Origin: an uncultured Chloroflexia bacterium | Lineage (GTDB): Bacteria; Chloroflexota; Dehalococcoidia; GIF9; UBA5629 | DNA length: 64,000 nucleotides | Reading direction: 5' to 3' | Assembly (NCBI GenBank): GCA_963775935.1 | Contig: CAVZKR010000004.1 | Span: 84,550-148,549 of the forward strand | Part shown: positions 47,724-64,000 of the stretch, piece after piece | Numbering within the stretch: position 1 is the stretch's first letter | Layout: each line of letters starts with the position of its first letter | Notes under the pieces: generated by a model | Told to the model about the DNA's origin: nothing | Database searches by the model: none | The model's input: the letters and a program-made list of their open reading frames with translations, nothing else | Translations under genes and position numbers: made by a program

Positions 47724-47919
47724 TTCAAACTACCTCGTTTCAGTTGGCTAATATTAGTGTTATTTAGTGGGAGGATATAGTGAATTGGCCAGCCAGGGAT
47801 AATTGTAACACGCTCTATGTTAAAGTTGCTATGGTTATGACAAAACAGACAATTGTTACCCGTCGTTTCTCATTACTTTTCTCACTGTAAACAAAGGATA
47901 CTCTAACCACCTCGCTCCC

Positions 47920-47987
47920 TTTTCATCCCTTTGGGCGTACCCTTTCCTTAATCGCCCAATTCTTTCATTTGGCAAACAAATAAACTA
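47920..47987. repeat. Repeat family A copy 1 (TTGGGCG inverted-repeat element)
   Basis: TTTCAT..TTGGGCGTAC(47931)...CGCCCAA..TCATTTGGCAAACAAATAAACTA; abuts the stop codon of an integrase fragment. Confidence 0.75.
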
Positions 47988-48067
47988 TCTTACCAACCTA
48001 TCCACCGGACTTGCCAACACATGTCTCTTGAACACATCATCAAATCCCAATGCCTGAGTATATCTCC
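47985..48067 (-). pseudogene. Tyrosine recombinase 3'-end fragment (type II)
   Basis: RYTQALGFDDVFKRHVLASPVDRLVR*: starts at the catalytic-Tyr helix of a Xer/Int-type C-terminus. Confidence 0.75.
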
Positions 48068-48236
48068 ATTATGCTTGCGGGACTAACTTAAGTAGTGTAT
48101 AACTGTTGCTTGTAGTTTAATCAGCCGTGTAGCAATAAAAGCTATTTCGTTACACGTTATGTGAATTTGGTTCTTTTATAACCGTTCTTGGATTTATACT
48201 GGAAGTACGTATCACATGCTTTAGGAAAAGAGCTCA

Positions 48237-49454
48237 ATGGAATCAAAATATTGGCGGAAAAACCTTTACGTCATAGCTTTTGCTGAGTTTTTAGCTATAG
48301 CTGGTTTTACCATTATCAATCCTTTTTTGCCTCTCTATCTGCAACAATTTGGGAGTTTTACCAGCAAGGAAGCCGCATTCTGGTCGGGTATTGCTATAGG
48401 TGGCGGCAGTATAGCCATGTTCCTGAGCGCACCTATTTGGGGGATAGTAGCGGATCGCTTGGGACGTAAGCCCATGCTGCTTCGCTCTTTACTTGGTGGA
48501 GCTATTATTGTTGGGTTATACATTCTGGTATCAAATGTGTATGTCTTTATCGGATTACGGGTCATCCAGGGTATTTTTACCGGAACCGTGGCAGCTGCTT
48601 CAGCTTTGGTGGCAACAGTTACTCCCAGAGACAAAATACCTTTTGCGATGGGTATTCTCATGGGTGCAGTGTATGCCGGGAACAGCTTCGGTCCTCTGAT
48701 GGGTGGCTTTCTGGCAGATAGTTTTGGCTTCACTACTACTTTTATGGTTACAAGTGGTCTTCTTTTAACTGGGGGATTGCTGGTTCTATTCTCAACACAG
48801 GAACACTTTGTACCTCCCGCTAAGGAACAGCGAGTTTCACTTGTGAGCACATTACGCTTAGCTATTTCACCTGAATTATTGCCTTTACTTGTGGTTATTA
48901 TAGCTATAAATATGGGCCCACAGATGATATCGCCTATTATTACTCTTGTAATCAGTGAAATAAATCCGGGTGGAGATGTAGCAAGTGCTGCTGGTATGGC
49001 CTTCGCGTTGATGGGTGTAATTGCCTCTGTCTCGTCTTTTGTAATCAGTCGGATAAACAAACGTTTTTCTCTGAAAAATATTCTGATTTTTTCCTGCTTA
49101 GTTACCGGTCTACTCTATCTGCCTCCTATGTGGTCGCATACTATAACCCAGATTATCATCACAGTAGGTATTACCGGACTCCTTGTTGGAGGCACAATCA
49201 TTTCGTCGAACTCGCTTATTAGCTTTTCAGTACCTATCGAAAAGCAAGGAATAGCCTATGGATTATCACAAAGTGCTACCGCTTTAGGCAGAGGGTTGGG
49301 ACCCATAATCGGAGGAGGATTAGCCCCTTTAATTGGCCTCAGACCAGTTTTCGGTGTGATAGCGGGGATTTTTGTCCTCGTTGGCTCATTAAGTGCAATT
49401 CTATTATTCAGACGATCTTCCCTTGCAGTAAAGCAAAGTCAGATTGAAAAATAA
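48237..49454 (+). CDS. MFS transporter DHA1 (MdtG-like), paralog of 40833-42071
   Basis: Near-identical, collinear with the 40833 gene. Confidence 0.9.
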   Translation: MESKYWRKNLYVIAFAEFLAIAGFTIINPFLPLYLQQFGSFTSKEAAFWSGIAIGGGSIAMFLSAPIWGIVADRLGRKPMLLRSLLGGAIIVGLYILVSNVYVFIGLRVIQGIFTGTVAAASALVATVTPRDKIPFAMGILMGAVYAGNSFGPLMGGFLADSFGFTTTFMVTSGLLLTGGLLVLFSTQEHFVPPAKEQRVSLVSTLRLAISPELLPLLVVIIAINMGPQMISPIITLVISEINPGGDVASAAGMAFALMGVIASVSSFVISRINKRFSLKNILIFSCLVTGLLYLPPMWSHTITQIIITVGITGLLVGGTIISSNSLISFSVPIEKQGIAYGLSQSATALGRGLGPIIGGGLAPLIGLRPVFGVIAGIFVLVGSLSAILLFRRSSLAVKQSQIEK

Positions 49455-49828
49455 TTGGTTTACATTGATCAACTATAGATAGAACTGAGCTTTTATCCAT
49501 ATCTTTGTCGTAGCTTACAGCTATGCGCACTGTCGAGGTATGACCAAAACCTTGGGCACAATAAGTATAGTTCCATTATAACTTTCCGAACTTTATCACC
49601 CTCGAAAAAAGAGGTACAGTGTCTTCTTCGCATATTTTAAGCAAAACACGTGAACTTTTTGAAGTTGTGATTCTTGAAAATTTAGTAATACGAGTAATTG
49701 TATCGTCTGATTGTGAATCAAAAGGGTTAAATTCAGTACAATGGCGATTAATGCACATCAGCTAGAGTGATATAATAAAAGACGGAATGAGTGACCTATC
49801 GTGTTTTTCTGGATAGAGGAGTAAGACG

Positions 49829-49942
49829 ATGAGTAAGCGTGATAAGAAAAAGCATGCCAAGAAGGAGCATATTAATAAGTATGCCGACGGGCATAAGGGG
49901 AAGGGCAAAGGAGACAAAAAGCAGGGAAGTAAGAAGGATTAA
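49829..49942 (+). CDS. Small Lys-rich peptide, 37 aa (not in ORF track)
   Basis: AGAGGAG RBS; MSKRDKKKHAKKEHINKYADGHKGKGKGDKKQGSKKD*. Confidence 0.5.
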   Translation: MSKRDKKKHAKKEHINKYADGHKGKGKGDKKQGSKKD

Positions 49943-50086
49943 GAGAACTTTGTAAAGGAACAAGCAAATTGTGGTTTACTAAATAAGGCTCAGCAAGTCA
50001 CGCCACAAGATTACTTGATACTCAGCTTTCCCCAAAGAACCCCGCCTATCGTGTAAATAACCAGCAGCATTGACCCGGCAAACACC

Positions 50087-50225
50087 TAAATATAAAATGG
50101 CCTTTCTTTCTAAAATTCTATTGTATGATAAGGGGAAATCTGCTCAGACAATTCAGTTTTCATCAGATTGGGCGTACGACTTATTTGATGCGTGGATTTC
50201 CGCATTGTAGCAACGAATAGCTATA
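50087..50225. repeat. Repeat family A copy 2 (with extended upstream homology to 53548-53617)
   Basis: ctaaatata..tggcctttctt..atgataagg..atct..gttttcat..TTGGGCGTAC(50168)..GCATTG(50202). Confidence 0.75.
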
Positions 50226-50351
50226 TCAAAGCGGCCGGGAGCATGAAAAAGTTAGAAAATCTTGAGCAATGGATATTATGTAATGCGTATGGCATAAATT
50301 TGGATTTGATAGGTTGAATACACTAGCCTGGTCTATTTATAGTTTGAAGTG

Positions 50352-50425
50352 ATAATCCGCAAAATTCTGGGGTTCAAATTAATAGGTCATGGGATTGGGC
50401 GCAGGACACACCTTCGATGTAGAAT
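50352..50425. repeat. Repeat family C copy 3
   Basis: ATAATCCGCAAAATTCTGGGGTTCAAATTAATAGGTCATGGGATTGGGCGCAGG. Confidence 0.65.
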
Positions 50426-50499
50426 TCATTGATATTAAACAGACAAGAACAAGAAAGAATGCAAGGTAAATAACTGACTTGAGTAAAATCAGTTGGTTT

Positions 50500-51245
50500 T
50501 CAAGCATGAGTTATATTCAATTTAGCTATCCTTTTATTTACAGATGAATGGGTAACATATTCAACATTCCATCTAGTATTTGGTTCTAGTTTCCGTAAAG
50601 CTGAGACATATATTTCTGGGTTAACCTTTTTGGATGCCACATAATCTGCTTCGTATTCATTATGATGGCTTATGCTCATATATGCGAGTAGGCACGCCGA
50701 CAACATTATCAATGCAGTTACCGCATTATCAGGTGGTCTTGGGATTATCCGCGCCAACAATATTATTGTAATAGCAATGCAAAATATCTTTCTCACATAA
50801 TGCCAATCTGGAATCACATAACACTTTTTGGCATGTACGAATTCATGAGCAACAAAAGCAAATTGCTCTTGTTCCGAAAGCTGATTAAACAAATGTTCGC
50901 CTAATAACAATTGCTTCCCAAAGCCATTCCATCCGATATTGTTCAAGCCTTTGACCTTTTTGAAAGGATTTTTTTATTCAATTCAATTCCCATATTATCA
51001 GCCAGTCGTCTGAACTCAGGAAATTCTACATAAGTGTATGGCCTTTTCCGAAAAATTTCTTTACTATTCCAGATTACTGCTAGAGCTTGCCATACTACGA
51101 TAATGGCAGAAACTATAATTAAGCCTAAGGATATAGTATTAACCGGGTTAAAAGGAACAAAAGAATATATGTATCCAAAAACAAGTGATACAGCACACGA
51201 AACTAGTACAATTTTATAGGTATTATTATAAATATTTATCTTCAT
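50500..51245 (-). CDS. M48/HtpX-like membrane zinc metalloprotease (one indel near 50950)
   Basis: Two N-terminal TMs, AFVAHEFVH (HExxH), NEYEADY, THSS..KRI. Confidence 0.75.
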
Positions 51246-51391
51246 TTATTTGCCTGTCGCCATTATGGTAAATCATGGAATTGCCTCAATGAACAACTAA
51301 CCTGATATTGCTTTTGGTTCAGTATTCCATCAGGTTATCACTGGGTGTATAATCAATGCAACTTGGTATTAAGAATTCCCTGGAGGTGCAT

Positions 51392-52195
51392 ATGGCTGAA
51401 AATGCCATAGTAATGTGCAAATACTGTAGAAAAGCATTGCCTCTTGATTATGAAGGTAATTGTCCTTATTGTGGGAAAGCAGGTAAGCAAGTGATAGCTT
51501 CATTCCGAGCAACCGTGGGCTTAAAAGCTACAGAAGAATATGAAGGCATTTACGAAGTGCCCGAAGCTGCTCGTTATATTGCAGCGACCACTACTTTGTT
51601 TTCACGGCAATTAAAACACATTAGCTCACGCAATTTGTTATTGTGGATTAAGACTGGCTTAGCATTGCCAACTTTGTCTAACATTCCCGCGAGAGAAATG
51701 GTTATTACCTTTGAAGATATGATTTCAATGAGGATCATAGCGTTATTAAGAGCAGCAGGGATCAGTTTTCCAAAAATAAAAGAGGCGGAAAAATATCTCA
51801 GAAAGTTAACAGGGAATCCTCGCCCTTTTGCGACTGAGCAAATATGGATTGGATACACGCATATTTTCTCCGAGTTTGAAGCATTTATAGTTGCAGCCAG
51901 CAAATCTGGACAAATGGGCATGGATTTTATCAAGGAAGATTTGAAATCTGTTCATGGTTTGACTTTTAATGAAAGACACGTCGCTTCAACTTGGGCTCCT
52001 TATAGGGATATACTTTTAAGTCCCTCAATACAATTTGGTAGACCATGTATAGCTGGGACGAGAATTCCAACCAAAACATTAGCTAATATGGTTAGAGCTG
52101 GAGACGCGATAGAATTTGTAGCTGAATCCTATGGGTTAGAAATGAACAAAGTAAAGCATGCTTTTGAATGGGAAAATATTTTAGTCACTAAATGA
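51392..52195 (+). CDS. DUF433/HTH antitoxin (VapB45-like) with extra N-terminal zinc ribbon
   Basis: CKYC..CPYCG, Y.VPEAARY HTH, ITFEDMISMRIIALLRAAGIS, IQFGRPCIAGTRIPT. Confidence 0.8.
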   Translation: MAENAIVMCKYCRKALPLDYEGNCPYCGKAGKQVIASFRATVGLKATEEYEGIYEVPEAARYIAATTTLFSRQLKHISSRNLLLWIKTGLALPTLSNIPAREMVITFEDMISMRIIALLRAAGISFPKIKEAEKYLRKLTGNPRPFATEQIWIGYTHIFSEFEAFIVAASKSGQMGMDFIKEDLKSVHGLTFNERHVASTWAPYRDILLSPSIQFGRPCIAGTRIPTKTLANMVRAGDAIEFVAESYGLEMNKVKHAFEWENILVTK

Positions 52196-52205
52196 AAATG
52201 TAACC

Positions 52206-52592
52206 ATGTATCTTCTAGATGAAAATCTTAGCCCTAAAATAGCGCAGGCGTTAAGACTATTTAGTTTGGACATTAAAACCATAGAAGAGGCGTTTGGACG
52301 TTGGGCTGTAAGTGATAAGGATATTGTAGATTGGCTTGAAAAAACTGGAGCTATTTGGCTTACAGAGGATGTATCGGCTAGAAAACAACATGAACATCTG
52401 TTAAAGACAAAGCGTATTAGTGCGATTTGGATTAGACAACCTAAACAAGGCTTGGTTTTATGGGAACAATTTAAGATTATTGTTAGGGAAATTGATCGAA
52501 TCGCTGAAATCGTTAAGCATTGTCACGGAGCAGTACATATCCAGATCGGTAAAAAGACTAAGGCTACGATAACTTGGGATGAAAAACCCTGA
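52206..52592 (+). CDS. DUF5615/VapC45-like PIN-domain toxin
   Basis: MYLLDENLS, SDKDI, WLTED; directly after the DUF433 gene. Confidence 0.8.
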   Translation: MYLLDENLSPKIAQALRLFSLDIKTIEEAFGRWAVSDKDIVDWLEKTGAIWLTEDVSARKQHEHLLKTKRISAIWIRQPKQGLVLWEQFKIIVREIDRIAEIVKHCHGAVHIQIGKKTKATITWDEKP

Positions 52593-52777
52593 TCATAACA
52601 TATTTAAGACTAAAGGGGCCGGCTTTGGCTTAACCGGTATCGCATGCTGTTTAATTCCTTCTACTTACATGTAAACCTGTAATGCTTCCTTTTAGCATTC
52701 CCTTCCAAAATACCGAGTGGTATAATTCTTCGTAAATAGAGAAAAATTCCAAAAGAGCCTTGATTTCGGGGGATAAA

Positions 52778-53494
52778 ATGGGTTTATTTGGGAAAAAGCA
52801 AAAAGTTACAACTGAAGAATTTTGTAAAAAATGGTATGACGAAGGTATTTTCAATCCTATGTTGGGTTTAAGTGAAAATTATATGCAAATTTATTGTGAA
52901 CAAGCACTTAAATCCCTAATTGAAGTAGATAAGTCTTTTTTATCTATTAATAAGGACGAGTTTACTCGTGAAATGACGGCTATCCGGATAGAATTATTTG
53001 GTCTTGCTTGGGGGCAGCTGGTTAAAAAAGATAAATTTATTATGGAACAGGCTCTTTTTACGAAGAATTATTTAATCAATAACAATAGACATGATATTTA
53101 TGATATTTTAATTGAATATAATAATGCTGTCGCAAAGTCAACTACGAGAGATAAGGATTTCAAAGAAAAAAGTGATTTACAAAATGCATTATCTAATAAA
53201 GCTAGAATGGATCGGTACTCCGAATTGGCAACAAAATTGAATCTCTCATCTGCATCAAAAACTAATGAAGATGCCAATCTTTTTGAATGTATCGGACGTA
53301 TTGGAAACCGTACCGGAGTGGAAGAAATACGGCATCTATATTCTCCCGTTGTGGCATTTTTGGGCATACAGCTTCGCATGCGACTGGGATTACCCTCGGA
53401 TATTCAAACGGATGCTCTTGGTAGGCTAAGCGCTATTATATTCGGCTTTTATAAAGGTGCGAAAGAATCCATAGAGAAAATCACTCTACAATAA
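52778..53494 (+). CDS. Hypothetical helical protein
   Basis: Long open frame, GGGGA RBS, MGLFGKK start. Confidence 0.7.
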   Translation: MGLFGKKQKVTTEEFCKKWYDEGIFNPMLGLSENYMQIYCEQALKSLIEVDKSFLSINKDEFTREMTAIRIELFGLAWGQLVKKDKFIMEQALFTKNYLINNNRHDIYDILIEYNNAVAKSTTRDKDFKEKSDLQNALSNKARMDRYSELATKLNLSSASKTNEDANLFECIGRIGNRTGVEEIRHLYSPVVAFLGIQLRMRLGLPSDIQTDALGRLSAIIFGFYKGAKESIEKITLQ

Positions 53495-53547
53495 TTTGTA
53501 TACTTTTTATCTAATCACCCATTGTATTACATTTACAGCTAAATATA

Positions 53548-53668
53548 TTGGCCTTCTTTTTGTAATATTCATCAATGATAAGGTAAGATCTCCGGATATC
53601 TTTTCGTTTTCATAACATTGGGCGTACCTATATTCTAATGCCGAGATTCTTGCATTTGGTGCACAAAT
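53548..53668. repeat. Repeat family A copy 3
   Basis: GTTTTCATAACA-TTGGGCGTAC(53618)..ATGCCGAGATTCTT-GCATTTGG(53652)TGCACAAATTGGCCTAT. Confidence 0.8.
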
Positions 53669-53852
53669 TGGCCTATGACCATAGCTCGCTCGACCGAAAG
53701 ACCACAGAAAGGCAAATTAACTCGTGGTTCGAATGAGCATTTTGAATCGACGCTCATCTAGAGTAATACAATCAGATTAACAAAGCGATCGACACTGGGA
53801 TGATATTATCAGTATGATATAATATTTCTGACAAAAGCAAGGAGATGGAGAA

Positions 53853-54008
53853 GTGAGCGATGAAACGTATCAAGAAGCTGTAGTTTGCGGGAACTGTGAT
53901 TTTAAAGGCAAAGTTACTATTCCTAAGGGGAAATTAGTGAGAGAAGCCCCTTGCCCAAAATGTGGAAATAAGACATTGCGCGTGGCACTCTCAGGCGAGG
54001 TGAGTTAA
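53853..54008 (+). CDS. Small CPxCG zinc-finger protein, 51 aa (not in ORF track)
   Basis: GGAG RBS, GTG start; MSDETYQEAVVCGNCDFKGKVTIPKGKLVREAPCPKCGNKTLRVALSGEVS*. Confidence 0.65.
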   Translation: MSDETYQEAVVCGNCDFKGKVTIPKGKLVREAPCPKCGNKTLRVALSGEVS

Positions 54009-54159
54009 TTCCAGGGCGATCGATTGCAGTTCTCATACACTTACGCCAGTAGTCAAGAATACAACATGCTTGCTGTGGATGCGTAGCTAATACGAAGGCT
54101 CTGAACTTAAGCGGAGGTGGCAATAGTAATCACTATAATGCAAGATTCTACGGTCAAAT

Positions 54160-54270
54160 TTGGGCATATCCTTGTCCCAACGCTCAGAATTTCGCATTTG
54201 GTAAACAAGGAAGCCTATTAAAAATAGCTGGCGCTAAACAAATTGGAGTCTGAAGGTGGTACAATTGTTA
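54160..54270. repeat. Repeat family A copy 4
   Basis: TTGGGCATATC(54160)..CGCTCAGAATTTC-GCATTTGG(54194)TAAACAAGGAAGCCTAT...AAACAAATTGGAGTCTGAAGGTGGTACAATT. Confidence 0.8.
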
Positions 54271-54332
54271 GGGGCAGGTCACAGATGCTTCCCTTCGCTC
54301 AATTTCCGCTAGGCAGTGACTTCCCTAGGTAA

Positions 54333-54725
54333 CTAGCTACCTTTTGCCGCACGCCAGGGATATAGAGCCATTAAAGCCACGAAGAAGACGGCATCAATGA
54401 TAATCCCCGTCCCCACCTGTTCAAAGGTAACGAAACCCCGCATCATTGAGTACACCTCGACGGCTAGAGCAAGAATAGCCCCCACTATGGCAAACTGTAC
54501 CCACATAATGTGCTTCAGCGGGTCCCGTACTGCTGCGACTATGACAAAGGCACCACCCGCAATGTAGCAGACGCCAAGCAGCGCGTGAAGGTATGGCGAC
54601 CATTCAGGCCCCTTTGCAAAACCCATCATCGCACCTAATTGCTCAGGAGCAAAAACCAACGCCAGACCAAGTAAAATCCATATCGCCGCCCCAATAATCA
54701 TCACTACCTTTAGAGCTCGTATCAT
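54333..54725 (-). CDS. Four-TM membrane protein
   Basis: 130 aa, four hydrophobic helices, GGAGA RBS. Confidence 0.75.
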   Translation of the reverse strand: MIRALKVVMIIGAAIWILLGLALVFAPEQLGAMMGFAKGPEWSPYLHALLGVCYIAGGAFVIVAAVRDPLKHIMWVQFAIVGAILALAVEVYSMMRGFVTFEQVGTGIIIDAVFFVALMALYPWRAAKGS

Positions 54726-54776
54726 TACTCATCTCCTGTAATAAGATTGACTAGAAAAAACTAAGCTAGTTGCTGA

Positions 54777-55121
54777 TTAGCTATACTGAGGTAGCTTAAA
54801 AGCCTTGGTCGCTATCGTCTCAATTAAGAAACCCCAGATGATCACAATGATAAAAGCCACCCAAGGGTCTAGACCAGTTCCGATGAGGCCTATCGCTGTG
54901 AACAGACCGAACAAAGCACCCCAGAACGCCCCATGAGCTGCCCAGTTCATTCTTATAGAACTCGCTCCAATTGCCACACCCATAACCGTGTGATTGAGCA
55001 AAAGGGAGATACCCATAGGCCAAAAATCAATCTGGGCAGTATACTTCGACAATAGCATGCATATGATGCCAAAGACTGCCCCAAAGATTGTGGTAATAGC
55101 CAGCCGAGATAATTTATTCAC
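54777..55121 (-). CDS. Four-TM membrane protein
   Basis: 114 aa, AGGAGG RBS, GTG start. Confidence 0.75.
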   Translation of the reverse strand: MNKLSRLAITTIFGAVFGIICMLLSKYTAQIDFWPMGISLLLNHTVMGVAIGASSIRMNWAAHGAFWGALFGLFTAIGLIGTGLDPWVAFIIVIIWGFLIETIATKAFKLPQYS

Positions 55122-55334
55122 CTTGATACTCCTCCTTCTCTAAACAAAATACTTTATAATCAAAAAGGGCACTGGCAACCGCAACTAAATTGCGAATCCA
55201 GTGCCCTTACCAAATTCCCAACTTCCTTCAAATAAACCTATTTGTTTATGTGATTATTATGTTGATCTGTATAGTCCTACTATATAGTTGCCTGGAGGTT
55301 TGTCAATACGATAAAGCTACTGACACGAGCCAAG

Positions 55335-55424
55335 TTATACCTTTATATTATCCACCCGCCCAAACCTTTTATAACTTTCTACTGCATCCAAACATCCCAC
55401 AGCATGACAATATCGATTAGTCGT
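55335..55424 (-). pseudogene. Tyrosine recombinase 3'-end fragment (type I) #1
   Basis: TTNRYCHAVGCLDAVESYKRFGRVDNIKV*. Confidence 0.8.
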
Positions 55425-55465
55425 GCTTATAATAGTTCAGACAATTCTAAATAAGGGGGTAAATT

Positions 55466-56119: not shown

Positions 56120-56188
56120 GTGAAAATATCAAGTACGTTAATTCACTCTGGTAACTGACCTGCTCCTATACCTAGTCCCGGTATAATT

Positions 56189-56287
56189 TCATACTTTTAT
56201 ATTATCAATCGGCGAATACCTCTTATGTGCCTCCACTGCATACAAGCATCCTACAGCCCGACAATATCTATTAGTCATCATCAATGT
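56189..56287 (-). pseudogene. Tyrosine recombinase 3'-end fragment (type I) #2
   Basis: TLMMTNRYCRAVGCLYAVEAHKRYSPIDNIKV*. Confidence 0.85.
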
Positions 56288-56321
56288 AAGGTAAAATTAA
56301 GTAAAGTGAGGTTTGATTGCA

Positions 56322-56350
56322 TTGACAATTTGTATTTTTAGGTATAGATT
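56322..56350 (+). promoter_or_regulatory. sigma70-type promoter (homologous to 57773-57801)
   Basis: TTGACA-N17-TAGATT, preceded by tgaggtttg as in the 57.77-kb copy. Confidence 0.65.
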
Positions 56351-56375
56351 ATGCATGTCGAAAGTGAATATTCAC

Positions 56376-56467
56376 AGGGGACGTTGAAGTACTACTTTAA
56401 TTTGGTCACTTGAGTGGTAGGGAGTCAATAGTGAAACCGGCCTGAAAAGGTCGGTTTTTATATTTTT
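56376..56467 (+). ncRNA. c-di-GMP-II riboswitch with overlapping intrinsic terminator
   Basis: GGGACGTTGAAGTACTACTTTAATTTGGTCACTTGAGTGGTAGGGAGTCAATAGTGAAACCGGCC matches the class II layout (TTGG.CACT / AGTG.AACCGG pseudoknot); AAACCGGCCT-GAAA-AGGTCGGTTT followed by T-rich run. Confidence 0.8.
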
Positions 56468-56545
56468 AAAGGGGAGGTGGTTCTATGACCTAGCAAGGCG
56501 GATGACAAATCGGTACGTTAATTTCTTAAGGGGAGGTTTTTAAAG

Positions 56546-57517
56546 ATGAAAACAAAGATTTTGCACTCTGTGACATGCACACTTGCCGCAGCTATATTAG
56601 TATTGACTTTTTTGCTGTTTCCTGTAGGACCTATGCCAATAGCCAATGCACAAAGTATTCCTATTCATTTGAATGCTGACTGCACATTGGATTCCGATAT
56701 GACGTTTAGTGGCACGGGGTTCTTTATTGAGGCAGACAATATTACCCTAAACCTAAATGGTCACACGATAACCGGAAGCTACTCTGGTCCTCTGCCGTAT
56801 TACGGTGTTCTTGTTAGTGGCCATTCTGGAGTGACCATTAAGAATGGCACGATTCAAGGTTTTGTCTACGGAGTTGCACTTGTTAATTCCAATGGGAATG
56901 TTATTAAAAATATTGTCTCAAATGATAACTACCACGATGGGTGTCTTTTCAACAATTCCAACAATAACGCAGTCAACGACTGTACGTGTGTCAACAATGG
57001 TTCTGTCGGGATAATAATGTGCAACGGCTCAGATGGCAATATTGTAAACGGTTGCACGGCCAACAATAATGGTACAGGAGTCAGTATAATAGATGGGGAA
57101 ACCCCAGGCATTGGCAGCAATAGCAATACGATAAAGAATACCGTCTGCAATAAGAACAGCCTTGGTGGCATATTCATTCAAAATTCTGATGACAACATCA
57201 TAATGGACAACACAACAATCAAGAACGGTGCCTCCGGTATCTCTGTTGTTGCAGGGTCGGATTCCAATGAAATCAGGGGTAATCACTCTTCGAATAATGG
57301 AACGATTGGAATCGTCGTTGGTTGGATTCCCACAGCTCCTGAAAATCGACAAGTCACATCGGTGGACAATTCAATAGTTGGCAATAAGCTGTCTAATAAT
57401 ACTTTGTGGGATATACGGGATAACACCCCTTTAGGCGGCCCTGGCACAGCGGGAACTTGGAATTCCTATGAGGATAATAAAGGCCGAACAAGTAACCCAG
57501 AAGGTTTAGTCGAGTAG
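56546..57517 (+). CDS. Secreted right-handed parallel beta-helix (NosD/pectin-lyase-like) protein
   Basis: Signal peptide, ITLNLNGHTITG, repeated Asn-rich G(I/V).l..S..N.I..N....N units. Confidence 0.85.
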   Translation: MKTKILHSVTCTLAAAILVLTFLLFPVGPMPIANAQSIPIHLNADCTLDSDMTFSGTGFFIEADNITLNLNGHTITGSYSGPLPYYGVLVSGHSGVTIKNGTIQGFVYGVALVNSNGNVIKNIVSNDNYHDGCLFNNSNNNAVNDCTCVNNGSVGIIMCNGSDGNIVNGCTANNNGTGVSIIDGETPGIGSNSNTIKNTVCNKNSLGGIFIQNSDDNIIMDNTTIKNGASGISVVAGSDSNEIRGNHSSNNGTIGIVVGWIPTAPENRQVTSVDNSIVGNKLSNNTLWDIRDNTPLGGPGTAGTWNSYEDNKGRTSNPEGLVE

Positions 57518-57644
57518 AGCGCAGAACCTATTTGTTTGTCACGGAAGTTACATACGCAGTAGCCAAAGAAGTGCGCTGAGGAGAACAATAGGCTTGTGGT
57601 TGATTGGGGTGGCAATCTGCCTCCGAAAATCATTCCACGAGGGG

Positions 57645-57740
57645 TTACACCCTTATATTATCCACTGGCCCAAACCTTTTATGGCTCTCTATTGCATTCT
57701 CACATCCTACTGCTTGGCAATACCTGTTAGTCATCATTAA
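57645..57740 (-). pseudogene. Tyrosine recombinase 3'-end fragment (type I) #3
   Basis: LMMTNRYCQAVGCENAIESHKRFGPVDNIRV*. Confidence 0.85.
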
Positions 57741-57885
57741 TTAATAGTGAGGTAAATTGAGGTTTGGTGGTATTGACATGAGGTGATTCAAGGTGTAGAT
57801 TACTTTAACAAGATTGGTTTTTCTTTAATACTATCGAGGGACAAGTAGAGAATTTAACTAAGAAAAGAGAAGTAGGAGGACTGCA

Positions 57886-58779
57886 ATGCGTAAATATATT
57901 GTCTTGGCGGCAATAACCATTTTATTATTACTGGTAGCTAACCCCGTCTTAGCCGCTCCCTCTAAAAACAGCCACAAGCCAGTTAGTGCCACTAATATCG
58001 AGATCGTTAAGAAGGTTACCCTCAAGGGCCCTGCAGCTAAGGGCGGGAAGCCATCTGCCTTCGCTGCCACCGGAATACTGGGAGATCCACTTCCGGCTAG
58101 GGGAAATAGATACGCCATAGTCATCGGTATAAATAACTACCCAGGCAGCAGCAACGACTTACAGTATGCTGTAAACGATGCTAACGAGATGGCATCTGTT
58201 TTAACAAACCTCTACTGTTTCGATACAGTCGATACCCTTACCGATTCTGCAGCTACTTATGAAAAGATACAAGGTAAAATTGAGACTCTGGAAACTATGG
58301 CCGGTACTAGTGATGAGGTGGTATTTTTCTTCAGCGGTCATGGGGCAAAGGGTAAGGCCAATGACGGCGATAGGAATAATACTGACCAGTCTATTGTAGT
58401 TAATAAGGCGGATGGTTCCTGGGGATATATATGGGATGGAGAATTGAAATCCTGGTTTAGCGGATTTACTGTAAACCGTATTGTGTTCATTTTCGACAGC
58501 TGTCTCTCCGGCGGGATGGCAGTACTGAATGCTCCAGGTAGAGTGGTCAATATGGCCTGTAGTATTAACGGTCTATCTTATGAAGGGGATGGTTGGGGTG
58601 GTGGTCATGGTCAGTTCACCTATTATTTCGCCGAGGAGGGGATGCAAGATAACAGTGCTGATGTACGGCCTCAGGATAGTAAAGTGACCGTCGAAGAGGC
58701 ATTTGATTACGCGAAGGTTAACTGCCGGTTCCAGACGCCCACCATAGCCGATGGGTTTACAAAAGATATGTTACCATAA
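57886..58779 (+). CDS. Secreted caspase-like (peptidase C14) protein
   Basis: Signal peptide, YAIVIGINNY, L.YAVNDA, FFFSGHG, FDSCLSGG (His-Cys dyad). Confidence 0.88.
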   Translation: MRKYIVLAAITILLLLVANPVLAAPSKNSHKPVSATNIEIVKKVTLKGPAAKGGKPSAFAATGILGDPLPARGNRYAIVIGINNYPGSSNDLQYAVNDANEMASVLTNLYCFDTVDTLTDSAATYEKIQGKIETLETMAGTSDEVVFFFSGHGAKGKANDGDRNNTDQSIVVNKADGSWGYIWDGELKSWFSGFTVNRIVFIFDSCLSGGMAVLNAPGRVVNMACSINGLSYEGDGWGGGHGQFTYYFAEEGMQDNSADVRPQDSKVTVEEAFDYAKVNCRFQTPTIADGFTKDMLP

Positions 58780-58835
58780 CAATGAGCACACGCACGGAGC
58801 TTTAAACTGCCACCACAAATAGTTTAGGGACAACT

Positions 58836-58954
58836 TCATACCTTGATATTGTCTATCGGTGAATATCTCTTATGAGCTTCAACCACATCCAAGCACCCTA
58901 TTGCCTGACAATCCCTATTAGTCATCATTAACGTTGTATGTCCTAGTAGCCTCA
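58836..58954 (-). pseudogene. Tyrosine recombinase 3'-end fragment (type I) #4, catalytic Tyr changed to Asp
   Basis: RLLGHTTLMMTNRDCQAIGCLDVVEAHKRYSPIDNIKV*. Confidence 0.85.
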
Positions 58955-59105
58955 GTCATTCCCAAGACGTATATGAATCGGTGGTTATATTATTTTATCT
59001 AATGGGGAACTGCTACTTTCCAAGTGATGTTGTATAATACAAACATAGTCGTGAAATGAAGTATTGGGTATCTTTGCAGAACTTGCAGGGATAAAGGAGG
59101 CTTAT

Positions 59106-59327
59106 ATGAAGACCGGTGAACTATTCGGTAAGGAAGTCTTAGATATTAGTGCCAACAAGATAGGCAAAGTTGTTGACCTTGATTTTGATATGCAGAAGGG
59201 ATTAATTGACCATATCGTAGTAAAGGCAGGGTTAACTAAGAGATATGCCGTCAGCCTGGACAAAATAGACAAAATCGGCGATAGAATCGTTCTAAAAATT
59301 GCACAAAGCGAGCTTCAGAAGAAATAA
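59106..59327 (+). CDS. PRC-barrel domain protein
   Basis: ELFGKEVLD..ANKIGKVVDLDFD, IDKIGDRIVL; AAGGAGG RBS. Confidence 0.88.
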   Translation: MKTGELFGKEVLDISANKIGKVVDLDFDMQKGLIDHIVVKAGLTKRYAVSLDKIDKIGDRIVLKIAQSELQKK

Positions 59328-59398
59328 CCTTCGCTCACCGATGGCCTGCCCCCCAATAAGTGTATCACTTCCAAGTTAGATTTGGCGCTACAATAGAT

Positions 59399-59542
59399 TT
59401 AAAGTCTGATGCAATCCATCGGTGAGTATAACTTGTGTGCCTCCACTGCATCCAGGCATCCTACTGCCTGACAATACCTGTTAGTCATCATCAATGTCGT
59501 ATGTCCCAATAGCCTCTGTAACATCAAGCTATCCCCACCAAG
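59399..59542 (-). pseudogene. Tyrosine recombinase 3'-end fragment (type I) #5 (longest)
   Basis: LGGDSLMLQRLLGHTTLMMTNRYCQAVGCLDAVEAHKLYSPMDCIRL*: box II LGH...T..Y of the Int/Xer family. Confidence 0.9.
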
Positions 59543-59599
59543 GGATAATTGGGAATTACTAATATTTCATTTACATTTTAGTAGTATAATTATAAATAT

Positions 59600-60472
59600 A
59601 TGCAGCATATGAATTCCTGCCCCAGTTGCGGTGCCAAAGTTGAGTATGGCGACAAGTTTTGTGGATATTGTGGAAAACCGCTACAGTTGGAAGCGCCAGC
59701 ACCATCTCCTCAACATGGCTATCAATACCCCAATCAACAACCACTAGGCGATCAGCCTTTGGATAAACAACTGGGGGGGCAGCAACAAGCACATGTAAGT
59801 CAACAACGACCACTATATTATCAGCAGTCTGAATCGAATCAACCCACTCTAAATAATCAACCAGCGGCATGGGGAAATCGCAATCGTGTGCAACAGCGGA
59901 TCAGGACTGAGGATCAGAGAACTAAGCCACTAAAGAAAAGGCCTTCTCGTGTCTTTTTATGGCTAGTGATTTTAATAGTGGTAATATTCATTATTGGCGG
60001 AATTGCTTTAGTGATAACAGGAAGTTTTTCCTCAACTACTAGCAAACCTGCCAGCGACACACCAGCACCAACAGCCCCTACGCAATCAGCAGCGACGCCA
60101 CCATCCAGCACTCCTGCATCACCACAACCACCCCCATCTCAAGCGCCGGTATTGCCAACATCACAGGCTACTCCAATTACTGCCACAGAGCTAATTAAAG
60201 CCTTTGCAGATGATCCTAATGGCTCACGCGCCAAATATAACGGTAATGTATATGTAATTTCAGGCACGGTATCCAGAGTTGGGGAGGTAGCACTACCAAT
60301 TCTTTATCTCTATGATAAAGCAGTAGGTCCCTTGGAAATAGAATGTATTTTCTTACAGGGTCAAGAATCGGATATTGCATTGGTGAACCCCGAACAGTCA
60401 GTAAAAGTGGAAGGTAGAGTATTAAATTTCACCAGTATCATTGTTGTTGATAACTGTAGACTAGTACAGTAA
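59600..60472 (+). CDS. Zinc-ribbon, single-TM, C-terminal OB-fold (tRNA_anti-like) protein
   Basis: CPSCG..FCGYCG, Gln/Pro-rich linker, TM, ITATELIKAF..D..G...KY.G...ISGTV. Confidence 0.8.
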   Translation: MQHMNSCPSCGAKVEYGDKFCGYCGKPLQLEAPAPSPQHGYQYPNQQPLGDQPLDKQLGGQQQAHVSQQRPLYYQQSESNQPTLNNQPAAWGNRNRVQQRIRTEDQRTKPLKKRPSRVFLWLVILIVVIFIIGGIALVITGSFSSTTSKPASDTPAPTAPTQSAATPPSSTPASPQPPPSQAPVLPTSQATPITATELIKAFADDPNGSRAKYNGNVYVISGTVSRVGEVALPILYLYDKAVGPLEIECIFLQGQESDIALVNPEQSVKVEGRVLNFTSIIVVDNCRLVQ

Positions 60473-60580
60473 AACCTCCGATACGGCAGAATAAAACTGA
60501 AACAGAGTAATTTAGTAATTAACTCGGCAAACTAGCCTTATCATTTTCGTCCTTCATACTACAGTAAAATTTCACCACCT

Positions 60581-60705
60581 TTTTCCGTTTTCATAACATT
60601 GGGCGTCCCGATAATCACCTGGCCTGATTCTCGCGTTTGGTGAACGAATAAGCTAGTATTAAGCCAGCACTTCAGCAATTTAGAATCGAAAGGTTGTAAA
60701 ATAAT
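60581..60705. repeat. Repeat family A copy 5
   Basis: CCGTTTTCATAACA-TTGGGCGTCC(60599)..GATTCTC-GCGTTTGG(60633)TGAACGAATAAGCTA...GGTTGTAAAAT. Confidence 0.8.
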
Positions 60706-60786
60706 TGATAGCAAGTTATATTTTTACGGTTACGTATGAATTTAAGAATTGGTCGACTTGGAGAATGATCAAGCGAGAGGGTAATC

Positions 60787-61743
60787 ATGTATAAAAAATG
60801 TTTCGTTATTATGCCTATATCAGATACGAAATCAGCTAGAGCCCAAGACTGGTCTTGGATTTATAACAGCATGATTAAGCCAGCGGTTACAGGTAGCAGG
60901 CTGGGTTTTAGCTGCGAACGCGCTAAACCAAGGACTGGCAGTTTCATTAGGGATATTTTGAACCAATTAAATACCTCAGATGTAGTTATAGCTGAACTAA
61001 CTGATCAGAATGCCAATGTTTTTTATGAATTGGGAGTTCGACATACACTGAGAAGAAGGACAATCCTTATTGCACAACATATGAAATACGTCCCTTCGGA
61101 CTTGCAGTCATATTGGGTTGTCCTCTATAAATATAAAAAAACACGAGATTCCATTTATGATTTTAGGAGGAAAATAAGAGAGGTGCTACGTGGGATAATT
61201 TCAAATCCCGATAAACCTGATAGCCCTGTGGCAGATTTTTTAACTGATAGGAATGTAGCACTACTATCAATAGAGAAGTCGGCTAGTATCAAGAAATTGA
61301 CGGCGTTGGTTTCCGAGTTATCCTATAACATCAGTTCTGTTGATAAGATCCTCGAACTAGCGAAGCAAAATAGAGAAAAGAGGGAGAAGAAAGAGGCTGC
61401 TTCGGTATCAGTATTACGTTTTAACGATTCCTGTCTCAACTTACTCCTTTCCACATACTATATTGCTCCTTCCGAAGATGTGCAGAACTTACTCAGGGAT
61501 GTAGCTCATGAATACACGAAAGAGAATTGTAGGCTAGAACTTTGGTCTCAACCTGCTTTTGCGAAAGGAGTTGAAAGCAGCGCAGTATCCACACTACCAC
61601 AGCTCAAGATTAAATTGATCGAGTTGCTTAAGATGATAGGTAAAGTAAGAGCTGACTACATAAGTGACAATTATCCAGAACAACCGTTACCAGCTCCTAT
61701 ATTAAGCGATGAAAGTCATGAAAAGTATATATTAGCAACTTAA
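60787..61743 (+). CDS. Nucleoside 2-deoxyribosyltransferase/TIR-like N-terminal domain protein with helical C-terminus
   Basis: KKCFVIMP, IKPAV, SDVVIAELTDQNANVFYELGVRH, VPSDL, SPVADF. Confidence 0.75.
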   Translation: MYKKCFVIMPISDTKSARAQDWSWIYNSMIKPAVTGSRLGFSCERAKPRTGSFIRDILNQLNTSDVVIAELTDQNANVFYELGVRHTLRRRTILIAQHMKYVPSDLQSYWVVLYKYKKTRDSIYDFRRKIREVLRGIISNPDKPDSPVADFLTDRNVALLSIEKSASIKKLTALVSELSYNISSVDKILELAKQNREKREKKEAASVSVLRFNDSCLNLLLSTYYIAPSEDVQNLLRDVAHEYTKENCRLELWSQPAFAKGVESSAVSTLPQLKIKLIELLKMIGKVRADYISDNYPEQPLPAPILSDESHEKYILAT

Positions 61744-61766
61744 ACAATATCTGCAACCTAATTGAT

Positions 61767-61833
61767 TTAATAATTATCTACTGGCCTATATCTCTTATGA
61801 CTTTCCACTGCATCCTCACACCCTACTGCCTGG
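61767..61833 (-). pseudogene. Tyrosine recombinase 3'-end fragment (type I) #6
   Basis: QAVGCEDAVESHKRYRPVDNY*. Confidence 0.8.
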
Positions 61834-61961
61834 CCCTAGAGCAATTTTATAATTTTGAAATTTTGACCGGTTCCTGGGGATCCTCATTCAAGTTTAAGGC
61901 GACTATTGTGAGGCGATAATTTAAAAAAATTAATTACTCAATTCACATTTCGGGGTGACTA

Positions 61962-63079
61962 TATGTAACGTCTTAAATATTTGCGCATAATACTTTAAGA
62001 GTGCCATTAGGCTGCTCCCATCTCGTAAATTGAGATACTAAAGCGATTCTCAATTTTTCGACGGATGTGAAATAACGGTTGTGAGTTACCTGTCGTCGAG
62101 TGATTCGCCAGACCCGTTCCACCGGATTGAGTTCGGGTGAATATGACGGCAGGAAGATTCGTATCAGTCGGTCTTGATTGGACGCGAACAAGTCTTTCAA
62201 ACCTTTCGCCCTGTGCCATTTGGCATTGTCCAGGATAAGATATATTTTCCCTTGTGTAGATTCGAGGAGATACCGGATAAAGTCGCCAAAGGTCTCGGAA
62301 TTGAAGGTAGGCGCCTCTTTTGTAAGGAGACTGCCTGTTTTCAGATTGAGTGCCCCGAAGAAACCCACGTTGTGACGGACTGAAGGCGAAACTACGCGAG
62401 GTTGTTGTCCTTTCGGAGCCCACATCCTTATCAGGCTGCTGTGTCGCTGGAAATGGACTTCGTCCTCGCACCAAAGCTGCATCGTAGGGTCTTTCATCCA
62501 CTCGTAGAAGTTTTTTTAAAGGCCTCCTGCCGGAGAGGATCGGCTTCGCTTGCCTGACGGCGAGGTCTCTGGAGGCTGAATCCCATCTGATGGAATAGTC
62601 TTTGGCATTGCCGTACACTGAGCGATATAGCGTAGTTCTTTCCCAGGTGGTGTGACAATAACACGCCGTCCCACAGGTTTTGATCATAACCCGTATCTCT
62701 GGGAGAACGCCGTAATTCTTTTCGCACTCTTTGCTTTTGCGAAGCTGAAAGACGGCCAGGTCGGCCAGGATGCTTTCCGTCCCAAAGTCCGCTAAGCCCG
62801 TGAGAAGCCAGTCTTTTAACCCAGTATTCGATAGTTCTGGAGGAGAATCCGAAAGCACGTGATGCCTCATAGGCACTAGCTCCACGCAACACATACAAGA
62901 CAACGGCAAGCCGATGAAAGTATCGTCCTTCCCTGGTTCGTGATAATTCATCTTGAATCGCCGCAATAAAGATTTCGGCATCCGGAATGGTTATCCTTTT
63001 CATGGGAGCAACCTCCTACAGCTTTGCTCCCATTATATAGTATTAACAAAATATACGCAATATATTATGTCGCTTCATA
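61962..63079 (-). mobile_element. IS630-family insertion sequence
   Basis: Imperfect IRs TATGTAACGTCTTAAATATTTGCG and revcomp TATGAAGCGACATAATATATTGCG; TA duplicated at 61960-61961 and 63080-63081 within a CTAG target. Confidence 0.88.
61973..63003 (-). CDS. IS630 transposase, two ORFs joined by a -1 frameshift at TTTAAAAAAAC
   Basis: ORF1 HTH (GRPGRLS, W....L), ORF2 DDE (EDEVHF, LILDNAKWH, LPSYSPELNPVERVW); A7 slippery run at plus-strand 62511-62517. Confidence 0.92.
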
Positions 63080-63244
63080 TAGATACAAGCATTGTGATAA
63101 CATGTTATACGTAAATATATAAATCGATTTAATATTTTTTACGAACTGGTAGGTTTAACACCGACCAATACAGTTTGAAATATTTAAGAAATGGTAGAGA
63201 TTGCTTTCTGAACAGGAAATGGTTACAGGTAAAGGAGGTCAAGA

Positions 63245-63721
63245 ATGAAAAGCAGTTATCTTAAACACATTTCACTGGCTATTTTAGTAATGGTTCTGAG
63301 CATTATGTCATTATCCACAGGATGTGCTACTGGCGTGTCTGCGACTGATTATAATGTTATAAAAAGCGAATTGGACAGTACAAAGGCCGAACTTGAAACC
63401 CTTAAGGCACAGGCTTCCAGTTCTTCCACCAGTTCTGCTGACTTTGCCAAAGTGGGCATGTACGCAGAGATAAACGACAGATGTATGGACGCATGGCGTG
63501 TGCTTTATGGAGAGCCTAGTAAATATGGCTATACTAAAAATGATGTAGTCAAATGGGCAGCAGATTTGGATGCAAAAATTGCTGCCGTAAATGATGCTGC
63601 ATTGATAATTCTGTGGAAATCTTATGTAGCCGCAACACCGGGCGCAGATCAATTCAAGAAGGGTGTTACTATGCTCAGCTATCTCTCTGATAAGCTAAGA
63701 TCTCTAACCGCAGGTAAATAA
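63245..63721 (+). CDS. Hypothetical lipoprotein with coiled-coil
   Basis: AAGGAGG RBS, lipobox STGC, GVSATDY...coiled coil. Confidence 0.8.
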   Translation: MKSSYLKHISLAILVMVLSIMSLSTGCATGVSATDYNVIKSELDSTKAELETLKAQASSSSTSSADFAKVGMYAEINDRCMDAWRVLYGEPSKYGYTKNDVVKWAADLDAKIAAVNDAALIILWKSYVAATPGADQFKKGVTMLSYLSDKLRSLTAGK

Positions 63722-63742
63722 AGTCATCTCTCGTATTGGCGG

Positions 63743-63810
63743 TTATGCCCTACCCATATTATCCACTTGCCCATATCTTTTATGACTTTCCACCGAATCT
63801 TCAAAATCTC
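63743..63810 (-). pseudogene. Tyrosine recombinase 3'-end fragment (type I) #7
   Basis: FEDSVESHKRYGQVDNMGRA*. Confidence 0.75.
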
Positions 63811-63840
63811 ATTAACAACAAAGAGAAATTTGATCAGACT

Positions 63841-63970
63841 TTTCCATTTCCATAACCCTTTGGGCGTACCAATTTTTATATGCCCAGAATATCGCATTTG
63901 GTGAACAAATAAGCCTATAGCAGCTAGTCTTTACGTAAAACAAATTAGAGTCTGATAGTGGTACAATTAT
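63841..63970. repeat. Repeat family A copy 6, ending in an extended -10-like motif before the next gene (ATG 63985)
   Basis: TTGGGCGTAC(63860)..TATGCCCAGAATATC-GCATTTGG(63894)TGAACAAATAAGCCTAT...AAACAAATTAGAGTCTGATAGTGGTACAATT. Confidence 0.8.
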
Positions 63971-64000
63971 TGAGGTAGTTCAATATGAGATTCACTTTTT

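Follow-up and report, generated by a model that had tools for sequence, protein, structure and literature searches.

A modular repeat family associated with integrase 3' ends in tRNA-linked gene arrays of a Dehalococcoidia genome, a candidate junction site

The systems closest to the one described here are integrons, tandem islands at tRNA genes, the dif modules of plasmids, SSV-type elements of archaea and the Tycheposons of Prochlorococcus. Integrase-less, cis-mobilisable derivatives of integrative elements are known as cis-mobilisable elements (CIMEs), the pdif sites of plasmids alternate in orientation, and the boundaries of Tycheposons are reportedly partial tRNA genes. Integrons occur in Chloroflexi (excerpts of Cury et al. 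2016, PMC4889954). In the SSV-type "suicidal" integrases of archaea the attachment (att) site lies inside the integrase gene, and integration leaves behind both N- and C-terminal integrase pieces (excerpts of Badel et al. 2020, PMC7253208). Here, we describe a repeat, family A, found in a 64,000-nucleotide stretch of DNA (the window) from an uncultured Dehalococcoidia bacterium; the window is C4:84550-148549 of a metagenome-assembled genome (MAG) of 8 contigs, 2.75 Mb and 88% completeness (GenBank GCA_963775935.1, contig CAVZKR010000004.1).

The evidence presented below points to family A as an att-type junction site that would carry a portable promoter and join lineage-restricted, integrase-associated, cassette-like modules stacked in one orientation downstream of tRNA genes. 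Judged from the sequences compared, we hold this reading to be evenly balanced between right and wrong. A first-pass annotation of the window had proposed that the element is the att or end site of the element family that left integrase tails nearby. This appears right in kind, the repeat being arrayed together with the tails and showing mosaic breaks, but not in mechanism, since the mapped breaks do not fall in the centre of the dyad.

Modules and distribution of the repeat

The first-pass annotation placed TTGGGCG-like starts at 47931, 50168, 53618, 54160 (TTGGGCA), 60599 and 63860. All six are present on the plus strand, and in all six a GCATTTGG-like box follows 34 nt after the start with no insertion or deletion. 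The 7-mer by itself is not enriched (106 matches with at most one mismatch, 146 expected). The annotation had also suggested a profile search of the genome and its relatives, and this recovered the repeat as a family: an nhmmer model built on the six window copies found each of them at E 1e-22 to 3.5e-31 and, at a cut-off of E<0.01, gave 30 matches in the genome, all of them within four island regions. The repeat is 100-165 bases long, and 15 copies from the source genome and two relatives align without gaps from -45 nt to +57 nt. Stops occur in the aligned reading frames of several copies, as had been claimed, and speak against a degenerate coding sequence.

Family A is modular. M1, of ~76 bp (columns about -42 to +34), reads on the plus strand of the window as a flank (..ACCACCTTTT.CATTTTCATAACA), an imperfect 11-7-11 inverted repeat or dyad (TTGGGCGTACC-N7-TAATGCCCAGA) and TTCTC. 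M2 is a 24-bp box (GCATTTGGTGAACAA..AGCCTAT, columns +35 to +58), and M3, a promoter-like module of ~65 bp (columns +59 to about +125, ..AACAAATTAGAGTCTGAAGGTGGTACAAT..GGGGCAGGTCA), faces the next gene. An alternative to M3, designated M3', reads TGGAATATGGTTGTGGGACTAACTTAAGAAGTGGTATAACTATTGGGG and is the window repeat family D8 (..GGGACTAACTTAAG.AGTG.TATAAC..). Both M3 and M3' end in an extended -10 motif, TGGTAYAAY, followed by GGGGCAGGTCA. The TG-extended -10 motifs that the annotation had noticed (GGTGGTACAAT, GGTTGTAAAAT and AGTGGTACAAT) are present in window copies and correspond to the terminal part of M3; the combination of -10 and GGCAGGT occurs 7 times in island DNA, which makes up 5.7% of the genome, as against twice elsewhere. 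M2 is the sole part common to all variants: M1 is always found with M2, as is M3, and both M2-M3 without M1 and M1-M2 without M3 occur.

Three of the window copies consist of M1 and M2. Copy 1 (47889..47988, +), with perfect 7-bp arms TTGGGCG/CGCCCAA, is the outermost unit of its array and adjoins the core gene Usp (46851-47723, -). Copy 2 (50126..50225, +), in which the right arm and box are degenerate, is closely related to a copy at C3:371041-371168, and the right partner of copy 3 (53576..53675, +) is unique. The other three carry M3 as well: copy 4 (54118..54281, +) contains GGTGGTACAAT and GGGGCAGGTCA, copy 5 (60557..60706, +) contains GGTTGTAAAAT and lies 84 nt ahead of the gene at 60787-61743, and copy 6 (63818..63984, +) contains AGTGGTACAAT. 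A promoter-like M3' module lies at 48071..48112 (+), ahead of a major facilitator superfamily (MFS) gene at 48237-49454. Further D8 copies begin at 34416, 37756 and 39140, with weaker ones at 27753 and 40094, and M3' is fused directly to M2 in 7 metagenome loci.

Pairing counts indicate that the M1 dyad is real at the consensus level. In 34 distinct copies drawn from the genome, its relatives and metagenomes, 233 of 340 dyad pair cells are complementary, compared with 66-169 after sliding of the partner by 1-3 columns. The imperfect inverted repeat of ~28 bp in the first-pass annotation is thus upheld for the consensus, and is degenerate in most single copies. The annotation also held that the centre of this repeat differs in every copy, which is so for the six window copies but not across the family, where the centre is inherited with subfamilies (GTTATTT in at least six copies, TTATTTC in two).

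A second repeat family, B, is read on the minus strand of the window as the 3' end of a tyrosine integrase gene (..LLGHTTLMMTNRYCQAVGCEDAVEAHKRYSPVDNI.. and stop); it encodes the final 17-59 integrase residues, including the catalytic RY motif, and has 25 matches in the genome. Fifty of the 55 A and B matches fall into three arrays, at C4 132-159 kb (+), C5 39-53 kb (-) and C7 107-132 kb (-), and three more lie in a 14-kb island on C3. Each array keeps a single orientation, with a median boundary spacing of 1156-1213 bp, and merging A and B matches yields 41 boundaries over the three arrays. Of 38 intervals, 26 have their longest open reading frame (ORF) in the orientation of the repeat and thus opposite to that of the tails.

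Each array is situated downstream of a tRNA-Ala or tRNA-Met gene, with its tails oriented like the tRNA. On C3, tRNA-Ala(GGC) (C3:367253-367328) is directly followed by a full-length integrase, and a 47-nt repeat of the tRNA 3' part lies at C3:381155-381201. The array of the window has tRNA-Ala(TGC) (C4:159895-159970, -) at its far end and a 36-nt tRNA 3' repeat at C4:154227-154262, and the C7 array is headed by tRNA-Met at C7:96722. The succession of tRNA-Ala(GGC) and an Xer-like integrase is conserved in three genera and on a 48.5-kb metagenome contig. A full-length integrase is followed by co-oriented tails at two loci that also have tRNA-Ala 3' direct repeats, L025 (nine tails) and L028 (two), and on two more MAG contigs co-oriented tails lie ~10-27 kb downstream of a full-length B-type integrase. 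Repeats of 40-47 nt from the tRNA 3' part bound islands of 5-14 kb (C3:367253-381201, L025, L028 and L057).

Among relatives the distribution of the repeat is patchy and resembles that of a mobile element. With at most 3 mismatches allowed, 9 of the 77 family genomes contain the M2 box, with 21 copies in the source genome and 7 in the congener G003 (a reversed control pattern gave 1 match among the 77). Among 301 genomes sampled across the class it was found in 3, namely the source genome, G005, which belongs to this family too, and one with a doubtful match at 3 mismatches (reversed control, 2 matches among the 301); in the 293 genomes of the class from outside the family it is essentially absent. 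An exact degenerate M2 pattern retrieved 26 metagenome loci; M1 stands in the same register in 21, and three look like chance matches. M2 was not found in viral contigs by pattern scan or in plasmids by blastn. One cassette gene is present in 4 of the 77 family genomes, and within 1.5 kb of the G005 homologue of the cassette gene at 60787-61743 there is no match to the A or B profile. G003 has a different array content at its orthologous tRNA-Met site, where the flank gene is 82.5% identical: 12 of 20 ORFs have no match in the source genome and one has a weak match (44%) in the C7 array. The site marks hypervariable island DNA beside tRNA genes, which supports the annotation. Synteny with G003 at the left flank of the window amounted to paralogue-level matches of ~65%.

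Integrase tails, breakpoints and the proposed exchange

The first-pass annotation recognised integrase tails beside two copies, at 47985 and 63743, and both are genuine. The first is a C3-type tail of 26 codons (47988..48065, -) whose stop codon overlaps the M2 end of copy 1; it is 100% identical to residues 215-240 of a 240-residue C-terminal query from the full-length C3-type integrase of the source genome (C3:367268-368311). The second is a partial B-type tail (63745..63803, -) directly left of copy 6, with which it forms a composite of tail and A site. Family B matches in the window begin at 55306, 56160, 57644, 58807, 59370, 61773 and 63758. The B-type tails at 55306..55433 (-; ..TNRYCHAVGCLDAVESYKRFGRVDNIKV and stop), 56160..56287 (-) and 57644..57739 (-) form module boundaries. 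The tail at 58807..58962 (-) extends back to ..LRLLGHTTL.. and its catalytic Tyr codon reads Asp, that at 59370..59525 (-) has a 66-residue match to a C7 fragment, and a short one at 61773..61832 (-) is cut on its 5' side and adjoins an IS630 insertion. A catalytic-motif residue has been lost in three tails with an open frame (Y to D, R to G and Y to H); tails with a catalytic RY substitution lie at 58835-58930 (-) in the window (Y to D), at C7:121689 and in L018. Two further tail scars, one B-type and one C3-type, lie at 37669-37750 before a D8 copy, and D8/M3' modules also precede MFS and other genes left of the six-copy region. From the D8 copies and these scars it follows that island structure reaches left of 47920.

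Longer integrase fragments occur at C7:119178-119453 and C7:114309-114548; such fragments measure 79-91 residues on C7, 83 on C4 and 140 in L028. A full-length B-type relative, of 310 residues, is encoded in genome G010. When three full-length integrases were compared with protein models, XerA, XerC and XerD scored best, all of them under cut-off; on the integron integrase model TIGR02249, which has a cut-off of 265, they reached 56.6-62.8 bits, divided between two stretches. These scores indicate that the integrases are Xer-like and not integron integrases.

The tails retain the marks of coding sequence. No stop interrupts the 29 codons compared in 33 of 34 tails. Differences among 16 distinct truncated B-type tails are distributed 826/593/1700 over the three codon positions, and their ratio of nonsynonymous to synonymous differences (pN/pS) is 0.27, compared with values of 1.07 and 1.56 for the shifted frames; synonymous sites are close to saturated. 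The tails therefore diverged inside working integrase genes and not by decay in place. N-terminal pieces are nearly absent from tblastn searches with six integrase queries, in which almost all pieces end at the natural C-terminus; two small internal pieces lie at C5:46935-47195 and C2:306603-306677.

The stop codons of some tails abut M2. C3-type tails stop within 0-3 nt of M2, or of what is left of it, at the 47931 copy of the window, at C5:40364 and at L025:11547, and in L051/L060 the stop of a B-type tail lies inside M2 (TAG of ATAGGC). In all, at least four distinct truncated tails and one full-length integrase have their stop codon 0-22 nt from M2. The full-length integrase is on the metagenome contig L037; it shares 79% identity with the 310-residue G010 protein over residues 2-310, and 19 nt separate its stop from M2, which is followed by M1. 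This abutment, together with the shared orientation of tails and repeats within arrays, bears out the annotation's association of the repeat with integrase tails. In L074, which has a full-length B-type integrase, an A match lies ~840 nt downstream in integrase orientation. In L062 (PLME01000004.1) an M2/M3-like module follows the stop of a full-length B-type integrase and runs in the same direction as the integrase, the orientation opposite to that in arrays. As a separate idea, M2 duplicated on both sides of integrase remnants was considered as a core; such a pair is clear only at C7:121.2-121.4 kb and partial at C5:40.2 kb, so it is not general.

Mosaic copies locate the breakpoints. Ten copy pairs share at least 90% identity over M1 and at most 65% over the 81 nt to its right. 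In pairwise alignments, homology of 94-97% over 100-200 nt ends right after GCCTAT, beyond which M3, M3', a tail or unique DNA takes over, and two neighbouring copies on one metagenome contig differ exactly at this break. On the other side, 5 copies on C7 and 2 in G003 have a B-type tail in front of M2-M3 where M1 would otherwise stand, the joint always being ..GCCTGAC/ATTTGG, just past the catalytic tyrosine codon; in L025 and L057 C3-type tails take this place. One M1 subfamily, defined by a common dyad centre, is found with differing M2 variants. The breaks thus fall at TTCTCG/CATTTGG and after GCCTAT; therefore they flank M2, 24 bp apart, and do not lie in the dyad centre. The annotation had taken the dyad centre for the variable overlap of a recombinase core, a view supported neither by the position of the breaks beside M2 nor by the inheritance of the centre by subfamily; the 11-7-11 geometry resembles Xer/dif arms, yet the mapped breakpoints fall outside it.

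Mosaic partners with such sharp breaks argue for recombination at the element. Small inverted repeats are present at both breaks (CACCAAAT-N6-ATTCTGGG on the minus strand, and GCCTAT-N5-ATAGCC), and either of them, or neither, may be the core. The 34 copies include no reciprocal pair with at least 90% identity on the right side and at most 70% over M1. No target-site duplications are visible at the element ends in pairwise alignments, although no systematic search for them was made.

We propose that an integrase of this clade would recombine sites containing M2, and that promoter-gene modules without an integrase of their own would be inserted, exchanged or lost beside the integrase 3' end, being mobilised in trans. 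The acting integrases would be Xer-like enzymes resident at tRNA hot spots. M3 would supply each module with its own transcription start, and the M1 dyad might serve as a recombinase-binding site or as a terminator of the preceding gene. Boundaries with B alone could reflect modules that bring in or displace integrase 3' ends. An extended form of this proposal is that an integron-like gene-capture platform has arisen independently, in which an Xer-like integrase beside a tRNA gene would use double-stranded M2-type sites to stack single-gene modules, each with a promoter, at its own 3' end, while B-type modules would bring replacement tails and the displaced, codon-intact tails would pile up as boundaries; this extension is doubtful, and we put it forward tentatively.

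A number of observations weigh against family A as a junction site. The dyad keeps at least 8 of 10 pairs in only 13 of the 34 copies and is degenerate in 21, and its arms show no covariation, the observed pairing being attained in 79 of 1000 column shuffles. The overlap of known tyrosine recombinase cores is 6-8 bp; the 24 bp between the two breaks exceed this, so the breaks cannot both be crossover points of one simple core. The starts of the tails range from residue 20 to 62 of a 79-residue reference, with clusters near 29, 40-48 and 54-56, a heterogeneity that does not fit a single fixed crossover. The annotation had suggested testing whether the motif flanks full-length copies of the parent integrase; M2-M1 lies directly behind the stop in one of ten full-length integrases (3 C3-type, 7 B-type), and the 3 C3-type and 6 other B-type genes have no A element there. 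No full-length B-type integrase was found in the source genome, which is 88% complete, many boundaries consist of B without any A element, and in 11 of the 38 intervals the longest ORF is on the other strand (one further interval has no ORF of 50 residues). Finally, 15 DNA runs cover part of the window, and the contigs of four DNA runs (X1-X4) contain no recombination product, circle or empty module site over 47800-64000. The joints seen in the X1-X4 contigs are cross-mappings of other repeat copies, with short sides and 90% likeness, except for a joint at the IS630 element.

Competing explanations

The main rival to a junction site is tandem accretion in the past. The modules would be decayed, tRNA-targeting autonomous islands, each of which once had an integrase; family A would be the former attP arm behind the integrase, the cassette-like appearance would result from deletions, and nothing would be mobile now. 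We consider this unlikely, though a serious contender. It would account for arrays that start at tRNA genes and for the tRNA-Ala 3' repeats at C3, C4, L025 and L028, for the variable tail lengths and the longer fragments (79-91, 83 and 140 residues), and for a source genome without a full-length B-type integrase, and the third-position bias and pN/pS of 0.27 are expected from once-functional, separately evolving integrases. However, the C3 and C4 island regions hold only 2 tRNA-Ala fragments, as against the 41 merged boundaries of the three arrays. If decay were random, pieces from the N-terminus and the middle should be as frequent as C-terminal ones, and only a few of them were found; also, 33 of 34 tails are free of stops over 29 codons. 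Near-identical M1-M2 units with unrelated partners would require recombination or the spread of integrase-less units, and the same M2/M3, M2/M3' and tail/M2 junctions recur across genomes and metagenomes, unlike the products of independent deletions.

The three remaining explanations are less likely than either a junction site or past accretion. The element might punctuate expression without any part in recombination, M1 terminating transcription by its hairpin and M3 starting it again; it would then spread by homologous recombination or in the manner of a miniature inverted-repeat transposable element (MITE), and the tails would hitch-hike. In favour of this, 8 of 15 copies fold the hairpin with z <= -1.6, a T-rich stretch comes after it, and in one copy (C5:41889) a double change preserves dyad pairing. 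The extended -10, with A2/T6 conserved, is found in most M3 copies, 26 of 38 modules run in the direction of the repeat, and AAGGTGGT-type inverted ends are present in some copies. Against this, the dyad shows no covariation beyond column make-up, and a scan with consensus promoters and terminators did not pick the A sites, its counts being close to those of shuffled sequence (55 versus 45.2 +/- 6.5, and 13 versus 12.4). Moreover, M2, the most conserved part, is neither hairpin nor promoter, integrase stop codons abut it, the sharp breaks sit at it, and the pairwise alignments contain no visible target-site duplications. We regard this explanation as improbable.

A reading of A, or of A together with B, as attC, whether in a chromosomal integron or in an attC cluster lacking an integrase, would agree with co-oriented arrays of mostly single genes ~1.2 kb apart and with the known presence of integrons in the phylum (excerpts of PMC4889954). 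The integrases, however, reach 57-63 bits against the cut-off of 265 on the integron model and match Xer models best, and the fold is not that of attC: consensus folds of 15 (and of 8) copies on both strands leave the ends unpaired at energies of -0.1 to -6.5, with no end-to-end imperfect hairpin, and only the local 10-bp dyad folds, and does so in some copies alone. The cassettes also have promoter-like modules, integrase tails form part of the boundaries, and it is the 3' end of the integrase, not its 5' end, that faces the array. An attC origin is therefore highly improbable. An ordinary transcription-factor operator for the neighbouring genes, to which dyad symmetry and a fixed spacing to a promoter-like motif would be suited, deserves very little credence, because all 30 matches lie in islands and none upstream of core genes, the neighbouring genes are functionally unrelated, the element is patchy among relatives and the arrays share no regulator gene.

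Further identities of the two families were discarded. A riboswitch or leader RNA on the minus strand was rejected, since none of the A and B copies in the window matches an Rfam family at gathering score. ARAGORN finds no tRNA in the window or in the A copies, and a comparison with tRNA-Ala by eye was unconvincing. Family A resembles a decayed integrase tail in its length of ~100 nt, but shows by eye no significant sequence likeness to one. Variation in family B, inspected by eye, is spread over the bases and is not confined to particular ones, as it would be in the variable repeats of a diversity-generating retroelement.

Module cargo and relation to known systems

The modules of the window carry unrelated cargo: an MFS transporter, a DUF433-PIN pair, a TMEM175-like channel, beta-helix, caspase-domain, PRC-barrel and zinc-ribbon proteins, and unknowns. 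At 51356-52592 (+) a DUF433 protein lies beside a PIN-like (DUF5615/PIN_10) protein within one module, and the pair is likely a toxin-antitoxin system. The sole Rfam match of the window is a c-di-GMP-II riboswitch at 56368-56451 (+; 65.9 bits, gathering score 53.5), located within one module between a B-type tail and a beta-helix/NosD-like gene (56546-57517). MFS paralogues begin at 34549, 37902, 40833 and 48237, and the 5' parts of two of these genes (40826-41125 and 48209-48508) are 93% identical. An IS630-family element occupies 61960-63079, with apparently frameshifted helix-turn-helix transposase ORFs at 62007-63003 (-). It is polymorphic: one X1 contig joins 61959 to 63080, with TA at both ends, and represents the empty site. 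Inside the tRNA-Ala island on C3, a pair of ORFs of 90 and 258 amino acids is present in two copies (C3:369394-370207 and C3:374289-375102) and is probably an insertion sequence.

To our knowledge, the mobile-element biology of this phylum is almost unexplored and genetic tools for it are nonexistent. A limited search of the main texts of the open-access literature found no arrays of integrase tails and repeats in Dehalococcoidia. If the modules move, they would represent a second, independently evolved route to gene-cassette arrays, with a recombinase of Xer-like type, with sites placed at the 3' end of the integrase and with cassettes that drive their own expression. The compact site with its promoter and the matching integrases would then be candidate genetic tools, and the 41 boundaries and the smaller C3 island would account for a sizeable share of the accessory genome of these polyphenol-degrading wetland bacteria. 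Should the arrays be fossils, they would still be an unusually clean record of tRNA-linked islands decaying into integrase-less units.

The SSV-type elements resemble this locus in having integrase pieces at element borders, tRNA hot spots and hybrid integrases made of pieces of differing origin (excerpts of PMC7253208). Here, in contrast, the pieces are almost exclusively short C-terminal tails with no N-terminal series, the hosts are bacteria and the integrases are Xer-like. We know of no junction of integrase tails with an A-type element that has been described for Tycheposons. These share with the present arrays a lineage-specific occurrence at few tRNA genes, hypervariable islands and cargo-only units (excerpts of bioRxiv 10.1101/2020.12.28.424599). 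In comparison with MITEs, some A copies have AAGGTGGT-type inverted ends, and the pairwise alignments, which were not a systematic search, show no duplications.

The dif modules of Acinetobacter plasmids likewise consist of small accessory-gene modules bounded by Xer-type dyads (excerpts of PMC6449649 and PMC13141974), and the A dyad, with 11-bp arms and a 6-7 bp centre, has an Xer-like geometry. Unlike pdif sites, all A sites of an array point one way, and they are 100-165 bp long, chromosomal, situated beside tRNA genes and accompanied by a dedicated integrase family and its tails. Tandem tRNA islands and islands of the Islander type share with this locus the order of tRNA, integrase and cargo and the tRNA 3' repeats at some ends (excerpts of PMC4383910). 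CIME-like, too, are the many units that lack an integrase and could be moved by one acting in trans. The locus differs from tandem tRNA islands in that its inner boundaries are integrase tails with the A element instead of tRNA fragments, and its units are of ~1.2 kb with one gene, dozens per site.

Integrons offer several parallels, including co-oriented, mostly single-gene units between repeated sites, many arrays without an intact recombinase and a variable content (excerpts of PMC4889954). In relatives of the source genome, moreover, a tyrosine recombinase gene heads the arrays. The differences are that the recombinase is Xer-like and lacks the IntI hallmark, that the array stands at the integrase 3' end with its units running towards the integrase, and that the units have promoter-like modules of their own, tails in their boundaries and a location at tRNA genes. 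On these comparisons the way in which the system would work is closest to that of integrons or of tRNA-island derivatives mobilisable in cis; in the tests that define integrons, however, it does not behave as one.

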